Assembly (NCBI GenBank): GCA_964581295.1
Contig: CAZONX010000002.1
Location: 8,788 to 65,409, forward strand
Direction of reading: 5' to 3'
Length of the DNA stretch: 56,622 nt
Source: an uncultured Acidimicrobiaceae bacterium
GTDB lineage: Bacteria; Actinomycetota; Acidimicrobiia; Spongiisociales; UBA5794
Part shown: in pieces, positions 7,034-36,626 of the stretch
Numbering within the stretch: the first letter of the stretch is position 1
How the letters are laid out: each line of letters begins with the position of its first letter
The notes under the pieces: generated by a model
Seen by the model: only the letters and a program-made list of their open reading frames with translations
What the model was told of the DNA's origin: nothing
Databases searched by the model: none
Translations under genes and position numbers: made by a program

Positions 7034-9006
7034 GCTGCCGGGACGACGGCGATGATCGCGTCGATCCGGTCGAGGAGACCGCCATGGCCCGGGAGAATCG
7101 ATCCCATGTCCTTGATGTCGAGCGATCTCTTCACCACGGATACGGCAAGGTCACCGAGCGGTGCGAAGATCGCGACGACAGCACCGAGAACGAGTCCGGT
7201 TGGCAGATCAATCGATTCGACGAAGAAGCTCGCTCCCGCTCCGGCCAGGAAAGCCATGAACGTGCCACCGACGAAGCCCTCGATGGTCTTCTTCGGCGAG
7301 ATGGTGGGAGCGAACGGCCGTCGCCCGATCGACGAGCCCACGAAGTAGGCGGCGATGTCCACCAGCGCAACCATCGCAACGACGGTGAACACCAGGATCT
7401 GATACTCCTCGGCGGCAATGATCGGGAATGCGAACGACCCGAAGCCGCCGATCCACCCGGCCACGAGCAGGGTGAGCGCGAAACCGCTCACAGCTCCTAT
7501 GCGTCGTTGGCTCACCGCACCGTAGAGCAGGATCACCGTTGCCATGAGCGCGAACGAGATCGGAATGGCGATCACGCCCCACACCACAGCGCCGAGCCCG
7601 GCGGCGATGATGCCGACGAAGCCAAATATGGACATGGGCTTGTAGCGGCGGTGCATGAGGGCGCTGTAGAACTCGCCGGCAGCGACCACGAACGCGGCGA
7701 GAGCCAACACGGTGATGGCGGGACGCCACAGCAGTGACAACAGGAAGGCCGCAACGAGAGCGATCCCGGTGCCGACACGCGGCAGCAGATTCGAAGCCTT
7801 TCGAGGAGCGGCAGGCGTGGTGTCGTCGCCGGCAGCCACGACGTCATCGAATCCCACCACACCCGACTCGAGACCTGGGATCGCGGCGGAGATCGCCACC
7901 TGCTGTGTGTCTTCCGAGTCGGCCTGCTCGATTGCTGCGGCGAGATCCTGGTGATCGCGCGTTCCTGTCTGGACGTAGTGCTCGTCTGTGAGGTCGCCGT
8001 AGTCGAAGACCGAAGAGGCAGCACCGGCCCCGCCCGCCACAGCGGCGGCGGCGGCGCCGATGATCGGGATCTCCCCGGTGTCGTCATCGCCGTCTTCGTC
8101 GGGTTCCGGGCCATCATCGGGTGCGTCGCTTGTTGCGGCAGCGTCGATTGGTACGGCGGGAATCACCGAGAGCCGGTCACGATCATCTGCGTCGGCTCGG
8201 TCCGCGACCTCTTCAGGAATCTCGGCGACCGGCTCAACGTCTGCAACGGCGTCGTCACGTTCAGCGTCTGCTTCCACAATCGGCTCGGCGGCGTCCGTTT
8301 CGTCGTCGCCACTGGACATCGCTTCCGGTGGAGCGCCGGCATCCGCTTCTGGCTCAGGCTCGGCTTCGTCATCCGGTTCCTCAGCGGCTGGATCGTCGTC
8401 GGACTCATCCGACTCATCCGCGGCCGCCTCTGCGTCGTCATCCGAACCGTCGAGGAAGAACTCGATCGTGTCTTCGTGGGGTTCGTCGTCGTCATCGTCC
8501 TCATCGTCGTCTGCGTCGATGACGGCCTCCGCCGGCGATGCGTCCGTCGCACCATCGTCAAGCAGTGCCGCTTCGACTTGCGCGGAATCATCCGTGACGT
8601 CGATGACCACATCGGTATCGCCTGCGCTTGGAGCATCGGCGTTCGCTCCGCTCGAGAACGCCACCCAATCGGCAATCTCTGCAGCGGCATCGTCCCCGTC
8701 GACGAGGGCTGCGTACGGGTCGCTGTCGGCGGATTCTTCGCCGTCGAGCCAGCCGTCAAATCCCGGATCGGACGGCGCCGGTCGGAGTTCGATGTCGTCG
8801 CCGGGTTCCGGCACGTCGAGCTCGCCGGTTGATTCGGGGTCGTGGCCGTCCATATCCCCTGACAGTACCTCGGCTTGGGGCTCGAACGGCGCATTCACGG
8901 ACTCGCGATCGACGGCGAACGCGTCGTCGCTTCCGGCAGAACTCGACGTTGCATCTTCGCCCGACATTGCGTCCGCGTTCGAGGGCGCGTCGTCATCGGT
9001 TGGCAT
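7000..9006 (-). CDS. cdsA: Phosphatidate cytidylyltransferase with ~400-aa acidic low-complexity N-terminal extension
   Basis: The C-terminal 267 aa (7000-7803) is a multi-TM CdsA core with the signature SxxKRxxxxKDxGxxxPGHGGxxDRxD (VKRSLDIKDMGSILPGHGGLLDRID). I chose ATG 9006 (GGAGG upstream) because the ORF-track start at 9075 would overlap frr by 56 nt. Confidence 0.8.
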   Translation of the reverse strand: MPTDDDAPSNADAMSGEDATSSSAGSDDAFAVDRESVNAPFEPQAEVLSGDMDGHDPESTGELDVPEPGDDIELRPAPSDPGFDGWLDGEESADSDPYAALVDGDDAAAEIADWVAFSSGANADAPSAGDTDVVIDVTDDSAQVEAALLDDGATDASPAEAVIDADDDEDDDDDEPHEDTIEFFLDGSDDDAEAAADESDESDDDPAAEEPDDEAEPEPEADAGAPPEAMSSGDDETDAAEPIVEADAERDDAVADVEPVAEIPEEVADRADADDRDRLSVIPAVPIDAAATSDAPDDGPEPDEDGDDDTGEIPIIGAAAAAVAGGAGAASSVFDYGDLTDEHYVQTGTRDHQDLAAAIEQADSEDTQQVAISAAIPGLESGVVGFDDVVAAGDDTTPAAPRKASNLLPRVGTGIALVAAFLLSLLWRPAITVLALAAFVVAAGEFYSALMHRRYKPMSIFGFVGIIAAGLGAVVWGVIAIPISFALMATVILLYGAVSQRRIGAVSGFALTLLVAGWIGGFGSFAFPIIAAEEYQILVFTVVAMVALVDIAAYFVGSSIGRRPFAPTISPKKTIEGFVGGTFMAFLAGAGASFFVESIDLPTGLVLGAVVAIFAPLGDLAVSVVKRSLDIKDMGSILPGHGGLLDRIDAIIAVVPAAWAVFVWAGLL

Positions 9007-9574: not shown

Positions 9575-10276
9575 TCAGCGAACCAGGGTCCCGACATCCT
9601 CCCCGCGTACGGCCCTGATTATCTCGCCGGGCCGGTTCATGTTGAACACGCGGATCGGAAGGTTGTTGTCCATGCACATCGTAATGGCCGTGGCATCCAT
9701 CACCCCAAGCTGGCGCTGGATTGCGTCCATATATGCGACATCTCTCAGCAGCGTCGCATCGGGGTTGGTCACGGGATCGGCGTCGTATACGCCGTCAACC
9801 TTCGTCGCCTTGAGCACCGCGGCAGCACCGATTTCTGCGCCTCGCAGTGCGGCCGTGGTATCCGTGGTGAAGAACGGATTGCCCGTTCCTCCAGCGAAGA
9901 TGACCACGCGGCCCTTCTCGAGGTGCCGAATCGCACGCAAGCGGATGTACGGCTCTGCGACCTGCTGAATCGTGATCGCGGTCTGCACGCGGGCGGGGGA
10001 TCCTGCCTGCTCGAGAGCGTCACGCAGCGCCAGAGCATTGATCACGGTCGCGAGCATGCCCATGTAGTCGGCGTTGGCCCGATCCATGTCCCCCGCCGCG
10101 GTCGATACGCCGCGGAAGATGTTGCCGCCGCCAACGACAACACCGATCTCGTAGCCCTCGCCGTGGACGATTGAGATCTCCTCGGCGACGCGGGCGACAA
10201 TGCTCGGGTCGATCCCGTATCCGACCTCCGGGCTGGCAAATGCCTCTCCGGAGAGCTTGAGAACGACCCGACGCAT
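9575..10276 (-). CDS. pyrH: UMP kinase
   Basis: [13 protein letters not shown]-terminus and amino-acid-kinase fold motifs ([10 protein letters not shown]). The start overlaps the tsf stop (TGATG). Confidence 0.97.
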
Positions 10277-10893
10277 CAGCCTTCCTCGCCGACGGCGATC
10301 CGAGACATGTTGGTGATACCGATGTTCTCGCCCATCTTTGCAGCAAGTTGCTTGACCAACTCCCCCACCGTTCCATCGAACACGTCGGACTTGATGAACA
10401 CCTGGTCGTAGAGAACGCTGTCGGCGTAGAAGCTGTTAATGCGCCCGTCGACGATTCGCTCCACGATGTTCTCGGGCTTGCCCTCGTTGACGGCCTGCGC
10501 CGCGATGAGGCGCTTCTCTTCAGCCACGACATCTTCGGGCACGTCCTCGCGATTGATCCATTGCGGACGGGCCGCTGCGATGTGCATCGCGAGGTCGTTG
10601 GCGACCTGTTGGAACTCCTCGCTCTTCGCTACGAAGTCCGTCTCGGACGCCAGCGCCACGAGCGATCCGATGACGGGACGCCCCGCCTGGCGGTGCAGGT
10701 ACGAGCCGACGGCGCCCTCGGACTGGGCTCGATCGGTCCGCTTCGCTGCATCGGCGAGGCCCTGCTCACGCAGGAGATCCTTCGCTCGATCGATGTCGCC
10801 GCCGGTCTCGGCCAGGGCGCGTTTCGCGTCCATCATCCCGGCGCCGGTGGCCTGGCGAAGTGTTTGGACGTCTTTTGCAGTGAAGTCGCTCAC
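10276..10893 (-). CDS. tsf: Elongation factor Ts, short (~205 aa) form
   Basis: UBA-like N-terminus ([37 protein letters not shown]). GTG start overlaps the rpsB stop (GTGA). Confidence 0.9.
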
Positions 10894-11759
10894 GCGCCCT
10901 CCTTCGAGTTCGGTGTCTCCTCGATCACCGCGCTCTCAGTGACCGCGTTCTCGGCCTGGATCTCTTCCAGGACGATGACGTCGGTCGGGGGCGCCGGTGT
11001 CGGTTCTGGCTGTGCCTTCGCAGGCTTCGCCTGAGAGGGCTTGTCCTGCTTTGGAGCGTCCTTGCGGCTCGCCTCGCGAAGCTCGCGGCCGTCCTTCGCC
11101 GCTTCTGCGATGACATCGGCGATGAGGTAGGCGGTTCGAATGGCATCGTCGTTGCCGGGAATCACCAGATCGACGGGATCCGGATCGCAGTTCGTGTCGA
11201 CAATCGCGATCACAGGGATCTTCAGACGGTTGGCTTCCGCAACGGCGATGTGCTCCTCAATGACGTCGATCACGAAGACGACGTCCGGCGGGCGCTTCAT
11301 GTCTCGGACACCGCCGAGCACCATGTGGAGCTTCTCCAACTCCCTGCGGAGGCGGAGGCGTTCCTTCTTGGGCAGCGACTCCATCTCGCCCGACGTCTCC
11401 ATCTGCTCGAGTTCGAGCATGTAGAGGATGCGCTTGTGGATCGTCTGGAAGTTGGTGAGCATTCCGCCGAGCCAACGATTGTTGACGAACGGCATGCCGG
11501 CCTTTGTGGCCGCTTCCTCGATCGCACCCTGCGACTGCTTCTTGGTGCCGACGAACAGCACCGTTCCGCCGTCGATCACCGCATCGCGTACGAGGTTGTA
11601 GGCCGATCCGGCCTGCTCAAGGGTCTGTCGCAGGTCGACGATGTGGATACCGTTGCGCTCGGTGAAGATGTACGGACGCATCTTCGGATTCCAACGGCGG
11701 GTCTGGTGGCCGAAGTGCATTCCGGCCTCGAGCAGCTGACGCATACTCACCACGGACAT
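10890..11759 (-). CDS. rpsB: 30S ribosomal protein S2 with Pro/Lys-rich and acidic C-terminal tail
   Basis: [23 protein letters not shown]-terminus; 289 aa; tail from about aa 235. Confidence 0.97.
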
Positions 11760-20472: not shown

Positions 20473-20817
20473 TCAGTCGCGCTTCTCCTTGATCCGCGTC
20501 GCCTTACCGACACGGTCACGGAGGTAGTAGAGCTTCGCCCTGCGGACATCGCCGCGGCGGAGGACTTCAATAGTCTGAATGATCGGGGCGTGCACGGGGA
20601 AGATACGTTCGACGCCGACGCCGAAGCTGATCTTGCGAACGGTGAACGTCTCGCGGATGCCGCCACCCTTGCGGGCAATGACGACGCCTTCGAACGCCTG
20701 CGTCCGTTCGCGTCCACCCTCGATGACACGCACCTGCACACGCACAGTGTCGCCGGGACCGAAGTCCGGGATGTCGTCGCGCAGCTGGGCGCCCTCGATC
20801 TGGTCGAGCGTATTCAC
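20473..20817 (-). CDS. rplS: 50S ribosomal protein L19
   Basis: GTG 20817 (VNTLDQIEG...) with GGAGGA upstream. The 114-aa product has a typical L19 sequence. The upstream part of the 170-aa ORF-track ORF is rejected. Confidence 0.95.
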
Positions 20818-20894
20818 GGGATCCTCCAAGAGGCGGAAAGAGCGGACCCCGATGGTAGCAAAGCGGAAACCTAAGTGAGAGAGCGACCAGTCAC

Positions 20895-30621: not shown

Positions 30622-33600
30622 TCACATATTCCGGCGGTAGCGTCCTCCGACGTCGTAGAGGGCGTGCGATATCTGGCCGATGGTGCAGAGCTTGGCGGCA
30701 TCCATCAGGGCATCGAACGTGTTGTCGCCCCGGATCGCGGTCTGCTGCAGGCGGGCAAGCGCCGCGGACGATGCCTCCGGATTGCGCTTGCGCACCGCGC
30801 GGGCCGCATCGATCTGGCGTTGCTTGTCTGCGACTGTCGAACGAATCACCGTGTCGGGAACCACGAAGGGCGAGCCGTCGCGCGACAGGAACGTATTGAC
30901 GCCGACGATCGGAAGCTCGCCGCTCGACTTCAGCCGCTCGTAGACCAGCGACTCCTCCTGGATCTTGGACCGCTGGTACATCCGTTCCATCGCCCCGAGC
31001 ACGCCGCCGCGGTCGGTGAGGCGATCGAACTCGGCGAGGACCGCCTCCTCGACGATATCGGTGAGTTCCTCGATGATGAACGACCCTTGCAGTGGGTTCT
31101 CATTTCGAGCGAGGCCGAGCTCCCGATTGATAATGAGCTGGATCGCCAGGGCTCTCCGGACCGACTCCTCGGTCGGGGTGGTGATCGCCTCGTCATAGGC
31201 ATTGGTGTGCAGCGAATTGCAATTGTCGTAGACCGCGTAGAGCGCCTGAAGGGTCGTGCGGATGTCGTTGAAGCCGATCTCCTGGGCGTGGAGCGAGCGC
31301 CCGGAGGTCTGCACGTGGTACTTCAGCTTCTGCGAGCGCTCCGCCGCCCCGTATCGGTCGCGCATCGCCTTGGCCCAGATCCGGCGTGCCACGCGCCCGA
31401 CCACGGAGTATTCGGCGTCGATGCCGTTCGAGAAGAAGAACGAGAGATGCGGGGCGAATGTGTCGATCGCCATCCCCCGAGCCAAGAAGTACTCGACGAA
31501 CGTGAACCCATTGGCCAGCGTGAACGCAAGCTGGGTGATGGGGTTCGCCCCGGCCTCGGCCATGTGGTACCCGGATACCGACACCGAGTAGAAGTTGCCG
31601 ACAGCGTGGTCGATGAAGTACTGCTGAATGTCACCCTGCATGCGCAGCGCAAACTCGGTCGAGAAGATGCAGGTGTTCTGGGCCTGGTCCTCTTTGAGGA
31701 TGTCGGCCTGGATCGTCCCGCGGACGCGCGAAAGCGTGTCGGCCTTGATCCGTTGACAGGTCTCGGCCGGGAGCACCTCGTCGCCGGTGATCCCAAGCAG
31801 CATGAGTCCAAGCCCGTCGTTGCCCGCAGGCAGGTCTCCCTCATACGTCGGCCGTGGCAGCCCTCGCCGGTCGAATCGTTCGACGAGGATCTGCTCCACG
31901 TCGCCTTCGAGTCCGTGCTGCGTGATGTAGCGCTCGCACTGCTGATCGACCGCTGCGTTCAGGAAGAATCCCAGCATCATCGGTGCAGGGCCATTGATCG
32001 TCATCGACACGGACGTCGACGGGTCGAGGAGGTCGAATCCCGAGTAGAGCTTCTTGGCGTCATCGAGTGACGCCACCGACACACCCGAGTTGCCGATCTT
32101 GCCGTAGATGTCCGGGCGTTCGTCCGGGTCCTCTCCGTAGAGGGTCACGGAGTCGAACGCGGTGGAGAGTCGGATTGCCGGCATGTCGCGAGAGACGTAG
32201 TGGAACCTGCGGTTGGTCTGCTCCGGCCCGCCCTCCCCTGCGAACATTCGCGTCGGATCCTCGGCGGCGCGCTTGAATGGGAAGACGCCGGCTGTGAACG
32301 GGAAGCTGCCTGGGAGATTCTCCTGGAGCCCCCAGCGCACGCGGTCGCCCCACCCGGTGAAGCGAGGCAGGGCAACCTTCGGGATTCGCGTACCGGAGAG
32401 CGTCGTTGTCGCGGCCTCGACCTCGATGTCCCGTCCGCGCACCGCGTACGTCACGGAATCGGCCGAGTACACCTTTTCGAGGGAATCCCACTCGTCGAGG
32501 ACGCTCGCGGCGAACGGATCGAGCGCCGCTTTCGCCCGGCCGGCAGCCAGATCGAGCGCGTCGTCACCACAGCGTTGGGCCACCACGGTGAATGCCTGTG
32601 CATCGGTGGCAAGGAATGCCTGCTCGACAACCCCATCGTTGTAGGTTCGGATCACGTCGGCGATCTCCGAGAGATATCGCACACGATCGCGCGGGATCAC
32701 CGGATCTTCACCGCCGTGATCAATTCGGAGATCGATGGTTGAGGCGAAGCCGCCGCTGCTGTGCCCGTCGATTGCCCGCATCAGGGCTCGGTAGAAGCGG
32801 TTCGTACCGGCGTCGTTGAAGTGGGATGCGACGGTGGAGTAGACCGGGAGGTCATCGTCGAGAATCTCGAATGCCTTGTGGTTTCTTCGGTACTGCTTTC
32901 GCACGTCGCGAACTGCGTCGTCGGCGCCGCGGCGGTCGCTCTTGTTCACCACCACGAGGTCGGCGTAGTCGAGCATGTCGACCTTCTCGAGCTGGCTTGC
33001 GGCGCCGTACTCGGGGGTCATCACGTAGAGGGCCACGTCGGCGTGGTCGACGATTTCGGTGTCGGCCTGACCGATGCCAGACGTTTCGAGGATCACGAGG
33101 TCGTATCCCGCAATCTTGACGAGATCCACGGCCGCCGCCACGTGCGGAGACAGAGCGAGGTTCGCCTGTCGAGTGGCGAGCGAACGCATGAAGACCCGCG
33201 GATTGGTGGCGGAGTTCATCCGGATCCGGTCGCCGAGCAGCGCCCCGCCTGAGCGACGGCGCGATGGGTCCACCGAAACGATGCCGATTGTCCGGTCTGG
33301 GAAGTCGGAGAGGTAGCGCACGACGATCTCGTCGATAAGCGAGGACTTGCCCGCGCCACCTGTCCCGGTGATGCCCACGACCGGCGTGGTCAGCAACGTC
33401 GCTGCGGAGCGAGCAGCGGTGGCGATGGCGCCGTCGGTCTCCTGTTCGGCAAGCGAGATCATCCGGCCAACAAGGGCGGGCGTGTTCGTGGCGAGGTCGG
33501 CGATCTCGGGAGCGCCAATCTCGGCCACCGAGAAGTCCGCCCGCGCCAACAGATCGTCGATCATGCCCTGAAGCCCGAGCTTGCGCCCGTCGTCCGGCGT

Positions 33601-34005
33601 GTAGATCCGCTCGATGCCGGTCCGTTCGAGCTCGGCGGCTTCGTCGGGAAGGATCGTCCCCCCGCCACCACCGAAGATCTTCACATGGGGGGCGCCGGCC
33701 TCATCGAGGAGCCGGCGGACATAGCCGAAGAACTCCATGTGTCCGCCTTGATAGGACGTGATGGCGACCGCCTGGGCGTCCTCTTCGATGGCTGCGGAGG
33801 CGATGTCGGCGGCCGATCGGTCGTGGCCGAGATGGATGATCTCGGCGCCGGTCGACTGCAAGATGCGCCGCATGATGTTGATCGCGGCGTCATGACCATC
33901 GAACAACGACGTGGCGGTAACGATGCGAACATGATGACGCGGTTCGTACGGCACGACCCCAGGATACGTCCCGGATCCCGTCCCAGCATCGATCTCTCCG
34001 ATCAA
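30622..34005 (-). CDS. icmF: Fused isobutyryl-CoA mutase (B12-binding domain + MeaB-like GTPase + mutase catalytic domain)
   Basis: 1127 aa with an N-terminal B12 domain ([12 protein letters not shown]), a P-loop [12 protein letters not shown], and a C-terminal acyl-CoA mutase TIM-barrel region. Confidence 0.93.
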
Positions 34006-34053: not shown

Positions 34054-34563
34054 TCAGGGTGATTCGAGGAGACCGGCCGGCGCGGTGAGCACCACTAGGC
34101 GTGCTTCGAGGTCAATGGTCGGAACGATGGCATCGACGAACGGCACTTCGAAGCGTCCATCATCGGTGCGCACGGCCAGGCGGTCCTGTGCTGCGCCGAA
34201 CTCAACCGCTTCGACCACGCCGATTGCTGTACCGGCCTCGTCCACCACGGCGCACCCGACGAGTTCGTCTGGCCAGAATTCGTCATCATCGAGGTCACGC
34301 CGCTCGTCGCTCTCGATCGTGAACGAGGTCCCTCTCAGGACTTCCGATGCAGAGCGATCGTTGACGTCCGCGAATTGCACAAGAAGATCATCACGGTAGG
34401 GCGCAGCATCGACGACCGTGTAGGGCCTCGGAGGCTCGTGGTCGCTGAGCAACACGGCACCCGGCGTCCAACGATTCGCGGGATCGTCCGTGAGCGGTCG
34501 GACCACAACGGCACCATTGATCCCATGGGCCCTTCGCACATAGCCGACAAGGATTCGGTCCAC
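34054..34563 (-). CDS. rimM: 16S rRNA processing protein RimM
   Basis: GTG 34563 (VDRILVGYVRRAHGINGAVVV) lies one nt after the KH-protein stop. PRC-barrel C-terminus. Confidence 0.88.
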   Translation of the reverse strand: MDRILVGYVRRAHGINGAVVVRPLTDDPANRWTPGAVLLSDHEPPRPYTVVDAAPYRDDLLVQFADVNDRSASEVLRGTSFTIESDERRDLDDDEFWPDELVGCAVVDEAGTAIGVVEAVEFGAAQDRLAVRTDDGRFEVPFVDAIVPTIDLEARLVVLTAPAGLLESP

Positions 34564-34564
34564 G

Positions 34565-34816
34565 TCAGTCGAGGAAATCGACCTCAACCGAGACTCCTTC
34601 TTCGTCGCCGGCGACGGAGGCAACCGAGCGAATGGCCCGAGCAACGCGGCCACGGCGGCCGATCACACGGCCCATGTCGGACTTCGCCGTGCGCACCTCG
34701 GCAACGATGGCCTCATCGCCATCGGCGACGATCTCAACCTTGATCGAATCCGCGTCATCCACGATCTGGCTGACAACGTAGGTGACGACTTTTTCGACGA
34801 TGGCGCCCTGGCTCAT
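34565..34816 (-). CDS. KH-domain RNA-binding protein (YlqC/Rv2908c-like)
   Basis: 83 aa with a VIGRRGRVARAIRSV GxxG loop. ATGA overlap with the rpsP stop. Confidence 0.85.
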   Translation of the reverse strand: MSQGAIVEKVVTYVVSQIVDDADSIKVEIVADGDEAIVAEVRTAKSDMGRVIGRRGRVARAIRSVASVAGDEEGVSVEVDFLD

Positions 34817-35283
34817 GATTCGTCCGTTTCGCTAGCGTCGGCGTCTGCGGCCGTTTCTTCTGCCGCTTCATCAGCGACTGCCTCGACCTCGTCCTGGATC
34901 TCGTCCAACAGAACGGGAGCCGACGCGGTCTCTTCCTGGATCTCGTCGAGCATCACCGGAGCAGCATCGGCCTTCGGCTTCGCAGCGGCGGCCGGCGTGT
35001 CGTCAACGATATGCACTTCACCCCGTGCGACCTTGTACTCGGTCCACGCGCCGGAAATCTCGAGCAGCTTCTTGGCGCGATCCGTGGGCTGTGCGCCCTT
35101 CTGGAGCCAATCAACGGCACGAGCGTTATCGATCTCGATCAGCGACGGCTCCTGGCGGGGTTCATACCGGCCGATCTGCTCGATGTACTTGCCATCGCGC
35201 TGCTTGCGTGAGTCCATCACCACGACGCGATACGAGGGCTGCTTCTTCTTACCCATCCGCGTCAGGCGGATCTTCACCGGCAT
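34813..35283 (-). CDS. rpsP: 30S ribosomal protein S16 with acidic C-terminal tail
   Basis: MPVKIRLTRMGKKKQPSYRVVV N-terminus. The S16 core ends near aa 90 and the tail reaches aa 156. Confidence 0.95.
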   Translation of the reverse strand: MPVKIRLTRMGKKKQPSYRVVVMDSRKQRDGKYIEQIGRYEPRQEPSLIEIDNARAVDWLQKGAQPTDRAKKLLEISGAWTEYKVARGEVHIVDDTPAAAAKPKADAAPVMLDEIQEETASAPVLLDEIQDEVEAVADEAAEETAADADASETDES

Positions 35284-35285
35284 GT

Positions 35286-36626
35286 CTACCTCTTCTTCTT
35301 GCGGCCCATCGCCGGCATCGGAAGCCCAGGAATGGGACTCTTTCCTCCGGCGAACGCCTTCATCATCTTCTGTGTCTCGGAGAATTGCTTGAGCAGCACA
35401 TTGACGTCCTGCGGTCGCGTCCCCGAACCCGTTGCGATGCGGCGCTTGCGACTCCCATTGATGATCTTGGGATCCCGACGCTCCGCTGGGGTCATCGACC
35501 GGATGATGGCCTCGACGCGTCCGAGTTGACGGTCGTCGATCTCGACGTCGCGCAGTGCCGATCCGGCGCCTGGGAGCATACCAACCAGCTGCTGCAATGG
35601 CCCCATCTTCTTGATCTGTTGGAACTGATCGAGGAAGTCCTCGAGGTTGAACGAGGCATTGAGCATCTTCGCAGCGGCCGCCTCGGCCTCCTGCTCGTCG
35701 TAGATCTCCTCGGCCTTCTCGATCAGCGAGAGCACGTCCCCCATGCCCAGAATCCGCGACGCCATCCGCTCGGGATAGAAGACATCGAGTTCGTCGATGC
35801 CCTCGCCGATACCGACGAACTTGATCGGTTGGCCGGTCACCTCGCGAGCGGAGATGGCGGCGCCACCTCGAGCGTCACCGTCGAGCTTCGTGAGCACGAG
35901 GCCGGTCAGGTCGGTGTACTCGAGGAATCCGTTTGCGACGTTGACGGCCTCCTGGCCGGTCATCGCGTCGAGCACCAACAGCACTTCGTCGGGCGTCGAT
36001 GCCTTCCGAACGGCTGCGAGCTCCTTCATCAAGGGTTGGTCGACCTGGAGCCGACCCGCGGTATCGATGATCACGACGTTGGCGCCGTCGGCTCGTGCCT
36101 GCTTGAGCGCGGCCTTCACCAGGCGCGGGGTCTTGGTCTTCCGGTCGACGTAGACCGGCACGCCGATGCGCCGTCCGAGCGACTCGAGCTGGTCGATGGC
36201 CGCTGGACGCTGCAGATCGGCAGCGACGAGCAGGGGCCGTTTCCCCTTGCCCTTCAGGTGTTTCGCGAGCTTGGCGGCAGTGGTGGTCTTTCCCGAGCCT
36301 TGGAGTCCGACCATGAGGATCACGAGGGGCGGAGCGGCAGGACGCGCAAGCGGCACTTCCTCGTCGCCCAACGTGACGATCAGCTCCTCGTGGACGATCT
36401 TGATGACCTGTTGACCGGGAGTGAGGCTCTTCGTCACCTCGGCCCCAACCGCGCGTTCCTTGACCCGTGCCAGCATCGACTTGACCACCGTGAGGTTCAC
36501 GTCGGCCTCGAGGAGGGCGATGCGGACCTCGCGAAGGGCGTCGTTGACGTCGGAGTCGGAGAGCCGGCCCTTCCCACGCAACCGCGAGAAGGTGTCGTTG
36601 AGGCGACCGGAGAGAGAATCGAACAT
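35286..36626 (-). CDS. ffh: Signal recognition particle protein Ffh
   Basis: MFDSLSGRLNDTFSRLRGKG, NG domain GLQGSGKTTTAAKLA, and a Met-rich M domain. Confidence 0.97.
   Translation of the reverse strand: MFDSLSGRLNDTFSRLRGKGRLSDSDVNDALREVRIALLEADVNLTVVKSMLARVKERAVGAEVTKSLTPGQQVIKIVHEELIVTLGDEEVPLARPAAPPLVILMVGLQGSGKTTTAAKLAKHLKGKGKRPLLVAADLQRPAAIDQLESLGRRIGVPVYVDRKTKTPRLVKAALKQARADGANVVIIDTAGRLQVDQPLMKELAAVRKASTPDEVLLVLDAMTGQEAVNVANGFLEYTDLTGLVLTKLDGDARGGAAISAREVTGQPIKFVGIGEGIDELDVFYPERMASRILGMGDVLSLIEKAEEIYDEQEAEAAAAKMLNASFNLEDFLDQFQQIKKMGPLQQLVGMLPGAGSALRDVEIDDRQLGRVEAIIRSMTPAERRDPKIINGSRKRRIATGSGTRPQDVNVLLKQFSETQKMMKAFAGGKSPIPGLPMPAMGRKKKR

Follow-up and report, generated by a model that had tools for sequence, protein, structure and literature searches.

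Two proteins of the small ribosomal subunit, bS16 and uS2, carry the same kind of short acidic-hydrophobic motif on C-terminal tails that run past their conserved folds in an uncultured Acidimicrobiaceae bacterium. Both genes lie in a stretch of 56,622 nucleotides (the window; positions 8,788 to 65,409 of contig CAZONX010000002.1, assembly GCA_964581295.1), and coordinates are those of the window unless another contig is named. A preliminary description of the window had placed two copies of the motif in the S16 tail and one in the S2 tail, and all three are confirmed base by base (34956..34930, 34914..34888 and 10979..10950). The observation is strongly non-random and a shared functional motif is supported. 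The element is real and selected, being kept in all 21 genomes of the genus through synonymous codon turnover. Recruitment of a partner through the motif is plausible, as judged from sequence comparisons and predicted structures. The parts of the two genes are the following:

34813..35283, minus strand: rpsP, encoding bS16 (156 residues); the core and a family-conserved extension form residues 1-95, followed by a 61-residue tail.
34957..34998, minus strand: S16 tether, residues 96-109, Pro/Ala/Lys-rich and variable.
34930..34956, minus strand: S16 motif copy 1, with Pro109 in front of it: VMLDEIQEE, residues 110-118.
34888..34914, minus strand: S16 motif copy 2, a duplicate (14 codons) of copy 1: VLLDEIQDE, residues 124-132.
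34816..34887, minus strand: S16 distal acidic tail, residues 133-156, variable except for the C-end ..ETDES.
10890..11759, minus strand: rpsB, encoding uS2 (289 residues); the core forms residues 1-234, followed by a 55-residue tail.
10980..11057, minus strand: S2 tether, residues 235-260, Lys/Pro/Ala-rich.
10950..10979, minus strand: S2 motif of 10 residues, residues 261-270.
10893..10949, minus strand: S2 distal tail, residues 271-289, with a conserved C-end PKExA that here ends ..KEGA.

The identity of the two carriers is well established. The Pfam model Ribosomal_S16 (PF00886) matches bS16 at residues 9-67 with 86.3 bits against a cut-off of 27 (E 1.3e-24), and Ribosomal_S2 (PF00318) matches uS2 at residues 9-224 with 313.6 bits against a cut-off of 26.1 (E 6.5e-94). 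The S16 extension that follows the fold is itself conserved, with W80, G88 and the segment TEF.VARG..H.V invariant or almost so in 30 family sequences. Searched alone against Pfam, neither tail matches any family at E up to 10.

The motif is not frequent in this genome. The assembly (2.44 Mb) yields a six-frame set of 41,608 open reading frames (ORFs) with 4.27 million residues, in which the pattern [VILM][VILM]L[DE]EIQ is found three times, always in the S16 and S2 tails, against 0.02 matches expected from residue frequencies. This exclusivity is read from an 88%-complete assembly, the missing part of which could hold a further carrier. None of 200,000 shuffles of the S2 tail contains the pattern. 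A motif profile of 12 positions, built from 47 instances, gives 24.4 bits to S16 copy 1 and 17.4 and 16.0 bits to the other two sites, while the next best score in the genome is 7.3 bits. Weaker motif-like strings, such as the C-terminal strand of an HtrA-like protease and off-frame ORFs, were rejected as unrelated. The three sites also have a plus-strand 10-mer in common, CCTGGATCTC, to which the preliminary description had drawn attention. It occurs three times in the window and only at the motif sites (0.23 expected; 0 of 100 shuffles reach three), and that part of the claim stands. The 10-mer is the reverse complement of GAG-ATC-CAG-G, which is E-I-Q in preferred codons plus the G that opens the next D, E or A codon, and it therefore adds nothing beyond the peptide. 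It reflects codon usage and not DNA homology; a meaning at the DNA level is ruled out, as the sites differ outside it and third positions vary among species.

The genus in question, here called g1, comprises the source genome and 20 further species genomes. S2 tails were read in all 21, and S16 tails in 20 genomes with an intact gene and in G018, whose rpsP is frameshifted in the assembly. In G018 (C5:95900-96800) the N-terminal ~27 residues lie in another frame and the tail with PVILDEIVQE is intact; the frameshift is probably an assembly error. The motif is present on both S16 and S2 in 21 of the 21 genomes, with the consensus P-V-[MIL]-L-D-E-I-[QRIV]-x-E on S16 and [VIAF]-[VI]-[VI]-L-[DE]-E-I-Q-A-E on S2. 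It is doubled on S16 in four genomes, at spacings of 14, 14, 18 and 22 residues, and on S2 in two, so that 15 genomes have two copies and six have three. The 14-codon duplication in the S16 tail of the source genome is visible only by direct alignment; Tandem Repeats Finder returned 0 rows for it. The S2 motif lies 26-50 residues out along its tether in the g1 sequences. Tethers of S2 in the congeners contain KDAPA or KDVPA repeats whose copy number differs among species, and in several a VVVEEVVVV stretch stands immediately N-terminal of the motif.

Within each tail the motif forms an island of conservation. Mean pairwise identity in g1 is 89.8% in the S16 core and 89.5% in the S2 core, 36.2% and 36.3% in the tethers, 80.7% and 79.4% in the motif, and 23.0% and 38.8% in the distal tails. 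The motif thus stands near the level of the core, and its flanks are also rich in insertions and deletions. An alignment of orthologs, as the preliminary description had proposed, accordingly finds the motif conserved (~80%) while its distal flanks drift (23-39%). The residues L, E, I, Q, A and E of the S2 motif are invariant in 23 instances while their codons vary. At invariant positions of the motif, L is written with 3-4 codons, I with 2-3, D with 2, A with 4 and V with 3-4. Because codons at invariant residues vary synonymously, the constraint acts on the peptide rather than on DNA or RNA. When profiles of the S16 and S2 tails are compared with each other, hhalign gives a probability of 90.6% (E 1.3e-6) and an alignment centred on the motif.

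The extreme ends of the two tails are conserved as well. The S16 C-end has a pairwise identity of 55.6% in g1, and its last residues (34816-34830 and the congeners) read mostly [TE]-E-[TS]-D-E-[SA] across the genus. The rpsP stop overlaps the khpA start (ATGA), and a translation-coupling signal in this overlap may be the cause of the conservation; a phosphorylation site may be an alternative. Conservation of the S2 C-end PKExA has a simpler cause, because the Shine-Dalgarno sequence of tsf (GAAGGAG, 10899-10905) lies there. The GTG start of tsf (10891-10893) overlaps the rpsB stop (GTGA), an overlap kept in 21 of 21 g1 genomes.

Structure prediction points to tails that are free of the folds they hang from. 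AlphaFold2 was given alignments of 30 (S16) and 29 (S2) family sequences. The predicted local distance difference test score (pLDDT) is below 50 over S16 residues 96-149, with a slight rise at 110-115, and over S2 residues 238-289. A free helix is modelled over the S2 motif at residues 265-275, not packed on the core, and neither motif packs against its own protein in the models. The intramolecular contact that had been suggested is consequently not predicted. An rRNA contact, raised at the same time, is unlikely for a peptide with a net charge of about -4. Taken together, predicted disorder and the conservation island give the motif the attributes of a short linear motif or molecular recognition feature, at the level of sequence and model.

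The distribution of the motif is narrow, and it appears to be confined to one uncultured genus of Acidimicrobiia. Nothing motif-like was found in the S16 tails of ten other genera of the family or in S2 from nine genera other than g1, eight belonging to the family and one to another. Only g1 has the long S2 tail, the whole protein measuring 283-313 residues there against 241-255 in those nine genera. Capture of the rpsB-tsf spacer as the source of this tail is ruled out, as in the other genera, too, the genes overlap or have almost no gap between them. The earlier statement that tails on S2 and S16 are common in Actinobacteria is thus corrected for S2, whose long tail is no general trait in this group. 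In a scan of 133 family genomes (30 genera) for V-h-L-[DE]-E-I-Q at the DNA level, 36 places were found in g1, 35 of them in rpsP or rpsB, and four single places outside g1, all in unrelated ORFs; a reversed-pattern control gave 0 in all genomes. A related pattern in a class sample of 401 genomes gave 14 single matches outside g1, none in a ribosomal tail, and several of these fall in a helix of ABC-type ATPases. The strict nine-residue pattern, scanned over 185,579 species with one genome each, has 90 loci. Twenty-five of these are base for base the rpsP (8) or rpsB (17) of g1, and the other 65 have no S16 or S2 core beside the motif by tblastn. Since strict scans would miss diverged versions, the motif outside g1 is to be called not found rather than absent. 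A word-indexed protein search with S16 residues 100-156 returned only three S16 proteins among 214 candidates, and the ESM Atlas gave no usable match for the S16 tail. In unrelated bacteria (records of Clostridiales, Cytophagaceae, Blautia and Lentisphaerae) hh-L-[DE]-E-I-Q-[DE]-E is embedded in acidic regions of other proteins that look disordered. The preliminary description had named absence from the tails of close relatives and chance frequency in this proteome as the two results that would speak against the motif, and neither holds.

The favoured reading, to which about an even chance is given, takes the element for a short linear motif that is specific to the genus, hangs on Pro/Lys-rich tethers and brings one partner to the 30S solvent face. 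Its working part would be the core h-h-L-[DE]-E-I, usually followed by Q-x-E, with a flexible Pro/Lys/Ala-rich tether before it and an acidic variable end after it. The motif would stay free and disordered on the 30S solvent face until it contacts the partner, and would then fold into an amphipathic helix of two to three turns, or into a helix joined to a short strand. A groove of the partner would take up the hydrophobic side (h, h, L and I, a V/M/L/I face), and a basic rim would face the acidic residues. The same bait on two proteins, in two to three copies per subunit, could raise the partner's concentration near the ribosome or, if the partner is an oligomer, bind it with avidity, and S16 and S2 would simply be two proteins that happen to have tails exposed to solvent. 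The simplest account has one partner for the two tails, because the peptide is identical, arose together and is conserved together on the two proteins, and the change of copy number by local duplication in both is expected of a modular bait. From a conserved island in a disordered tail we infer binding to one partner in trans, and with it that the motif binds at all, that the two proteins have a common partner, how it binds and where it acts.

Several points weigh against this reading. A search for the partner over Pup, HPF's C-terminal domain, uS4 and phage mimics supports none of them, so that of the shared function proposed earlier the shared selected motif stands and recruitment is left with no partner among these candidates. 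No gene presence or absence tracks the motif among the candidates checked (Pup, long HPF and insertions or deletions in uS4), and a universal partner would leave the restriction of the motif to one genus unexplained. The S16 and S2 versions are not strictly identical, since 8 of 24 instances on S16 have R, I or V in place of Gln. The 21 genomes of g1 are related and are not independent observations. The AlphaFold2 model of S16 is poor (mean pLDDT 56.7 with 30 sequences) and gives a weak view of the tail. Among other checks, the SMR domain of collision nucleases was not found in this 88%-complete genome. Ribosomal protein S1 has an acidic N-terminal region and a conserved C-end of its own, which are order-wide and not g1-specific, and neither region is among the 40 best matches to the motif profile in this genome. 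Across the order the N-terminal region of S1 is Val/Ala/Thr/Pro-rich, about 50-150 residues long and placed before the first S1 domain, and the C-terminal peptide reads ..SLEAILQELKE[RK]GIGR. In the S1 of this genome (contig C86:5488-6795) part of the N-terminus reads N.

The strongest rival, though an unlikely one, is a contact inside the ribosome, in which both tails dock at the same site on a neighbouring small-subunit protein and there is no outside partner. The site would most plausibly lie near uS4, uS5 and uS3, at the shoulder and the mRNA entry, and the contact would stabilise or gate this region. The accessible part of a structural report on Cutibacterium acnes describes a 65-residue C-terminal extension of bS16 that binds uS4 and whose far end is invisible (PMC10085706). 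The first S16 motif of g1 stays near the uS4 region because it is only ~17 residues beyond the family-conserved extension, and the S2 tether of 26-50 residues could reach far across the subunit. However, uS4, the small-subunit protein compared here, has no genus-specific insertion or deletion in g1, and it is organised alike in a second genus (G023) of the same family. A fixed dock is also unlikely to tolerate changes of copy number and tethers that vary by tens of residues, and AlphaFold2, as already said, docks neither motif on its own protein. As for uS4 itself, the N-terminal zinc-finger cysteines are missing in g1 and in G023 and are retained in other families of the order, some of which have an extra 6-residue insertion.

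A contact between ribosomes is decidedly improbable. Here the motifs would act at 30S-30S interfaces, in hibernating dimers or between neighbours in a polysome, with the dimeric C-terminal domain of long HPF or the surface of the neighbouring ribosome as target. Such interfaces do involve uS2: according to the accessible parts of two sources, the dimer of HPF C-terminal domains touches uS2 in 100S particles of the long-HPF type, and uS2 meets uS3, uS4 and uS5 of the other ribosome in the E. coli type (PMC6177447, PMC5620043). The present genome encodes a long HPF with this C-terminal domain, and at least two motif copies per subunit would suit a dimeric reader. Of 61 relatives, inside and outside g1, however, 59 have a colinear long HPF, and no domain change in it is specific to g1; its C-terminal domain is acidic by residue count and a poor match for an acidic peptide, and from its short tether the S16 motif could hardly get to a site next to uS2. 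The HPF linker of two congeners (G005 and G009) reads ..PLDEPVDEIQDRD.., which is partly motif-like with the hydrophobic pair missing, and that of others PVDD[ALS].DRD; the likeness is probably due to chance. The tallies over 61 relatives, for HPF and for Pup, include two unpublished outgroup genomes of the same order (G039 and G050) that do not enter the readings of S16 and S2 tails. Single rows from these two also appear in the comparisons of Pup, S1 and uS4, and no main claim depends on them.

Mimicry of Pup has little to recommend it and is rated as very improbable. The motif would imitate the first binding helix of Pup and bind the Pup ligase, the depupylase or the proteasomal ATPase, which would link ribosomes to the Pup-proteasome system. 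The genome has pup, dop and pafA, its own Pup (73.1 bits) reads ..IDDLLEEIDSVLEEN.. and has h-L-[DE]-E-I in common with the motif, and hhalign sets the motif in register with the Pup helix. The segment of Pup with h-L-[DE]-E-I is the part that binds the enzymes and the ATPase. The likeness is weak in the quantitative comparisons: the hhalign probability is 5-13%, the Pfam Pup model (PF05639) matches neither tail at E up to 10, and with 0.3 bits from the motif profile Pup comes 208th among the 18,533 six-frame ORFs that score. The tails also have neither the second hydrophobic pair nor the GG[QE] end of Pup, ending instead in ..ETDES and ..KEGA, and Pup is found in 59 of 61 relatives, also outside g1, so that its presence does not track the motif. 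Within g1, Pup ends in GGQ in 10 of 10 sequences, against GGE in 17 of 20 from other genera; the Pup of g1 would need deamidation by Dop before ligation because it ends in GGQ.

That the motif is a by-product with no specific binding, copied DNA or an accident of composition kept for helix nucleation or charge, is scarcely credible. Acidic Val-rich tails are general in the family (S16 of other genera) and occur in S1, hh-L-[DE]-E-I-Q-x-E is also present in unrelated proteins of other phyla (the 65 loci), and the string resembles the hhhhDE stretch that marks the Walker B strand of P-loop NTPases. The three observed occurrences against 0.02 expected, all in two tails, argue against it, as do the invariance of residues under synonymous codon turnover in both proteins of 21 genomes while neighbouring residues drift and gain insertions and deletions, and the fact that a generic property would not keep L, E and I fixed. 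A Walker B strand as such was rejected, since the motif lies past the ribosomal folds in a tail predicted to be disordered and with no NTPase domain there; Pfam finds no NTPase family in the S16 or S2 protein. Phage mimics were rejected too, the three viral loci with the strict pattern all being unrelated ORFs of low-GC phages.

Both genes stand in ordinary housekeeping surroundings. The order around rpsP is the usual ffh - rpsP - KH-domain gene - rimM, and rpsB is followed by tsf, pyrH and frr. Trailing rimM directly is a fusion protein of 1127 residues, with a B12-binding domain, a MeaB-type GTPase and a methylmalonyl-CoA-mutase domain. The genes trmD and rplS are not adjacent; L19 lies at about 20473-20820, and its apparent N-terminal extension is a mis-called start. 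The neighbours with coordinates are:

35286-36626: SRP54 (ffh).
34565-34816: KhpA-type KH gene.
34054-34653: RimM.
30622-34005, minus strand: the fusion protein.
10276-10893: the EF-Ts gene (tsf), overlapping the rpsB stop by 4 bases.

The motif offers an unusually clean case, in which a peptide arose once, on two proteins of one genus, is fixed amid drifting surroundings and is found nowhere else in the genome. It can be regarded as a natural experiment in the birth of a new link between the ribosome and a partner, and it gives a defined 10-residue handle for fishing that partner out. Its reach is limited by the organisms, which are uncultured, and by its restriction to one genus. The finding is testable and, as far as the literature could be searched, new; as the preliminary description had supposed, no such motif was found in work on S16 and S2 tails, a coverage that leaves out subscription journals and supplements. 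In archaeal and eukaryotic ribosomes the recruitment of factors depends centrally on conserved recognition peptides carried by flexible tails. To our knowledge no shared peptide of this sort has been reported on two proteins of the bacterial small subunit.

Known systems resemble the motif in different respects. The bacterial protein SSB, which binds single-stranded DNA, recruits its partners through an acidic C-terminal tip, a peptide that includes a few hydrophobic residues and hangs on a long disordered tether. The S16 and S2 tails are built alike, but SSB is a DNA-binding protein, its tip, a different motif, forms the C-terminus itself, and it occurs in nearly all bacteria. Pup (PF05639) is likewise a disordered protein that binds through a helix with h-L-[DE]-E-I, and it is encoded in the same genome. 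Its GG[QE] end and second hydrophobic pair set it apart from the tails, and the profiles show no significant similarity. The bS16 extension of C. acnes concerns the same protein, runs past the S16 fold and has a flexible far end that is not seen (PMC10085706). The accessible text of that paper describes the ordered part that binds uS4 and mentions neither a motif in the flexible end nor a counterpart on uS2 (PMC10085706).

As an analogy at most, the closest functional counterpart may be the tail peptide of the P stalk of archaeal and eukaryotic ribosomes. In the accessible parts of two sources, one C-terminal helix present on several stalk proteins binds a hydrophobic groove of translation factors (PMC5887453, PMC7768734). 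As in the P stalk (P0, P1/P2 and aP1), an acidic-hydrophobic peptide is found on different ribosomal proteins, in several copies and on flexible linkers; in the stalk the peptide becomes a helix in the partners' hydrophobic groove and gathers a local supply of them (PMC5887453, PMC7768734). It is possible, if on the doubtful side, that the motif is a bacterial small-subunit counterpart, a multivalent helix-forming bait on two 30S proteins that evolved in one genus. Such a bait could keep a pool of one factor at the mRNA entry and exit face, candidates for which would be a factor for initiation or for mRNA handling, the transcription machinery or a protein specific to the genus. If so, it would represent a new and evolvable way to wire a factor to the ribosome. 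We claim no relationship in sequence, and the positions differ. In the P stalk the peptide is borne by large-subunit proteins at their extreme C-terminus; it is universal across two domains of life, and its partners are known. In contrast, the motif described here is carried by two proteins of the small subunit, lies internally at 19-38 residues from the end and belongs to one bacterial genus.

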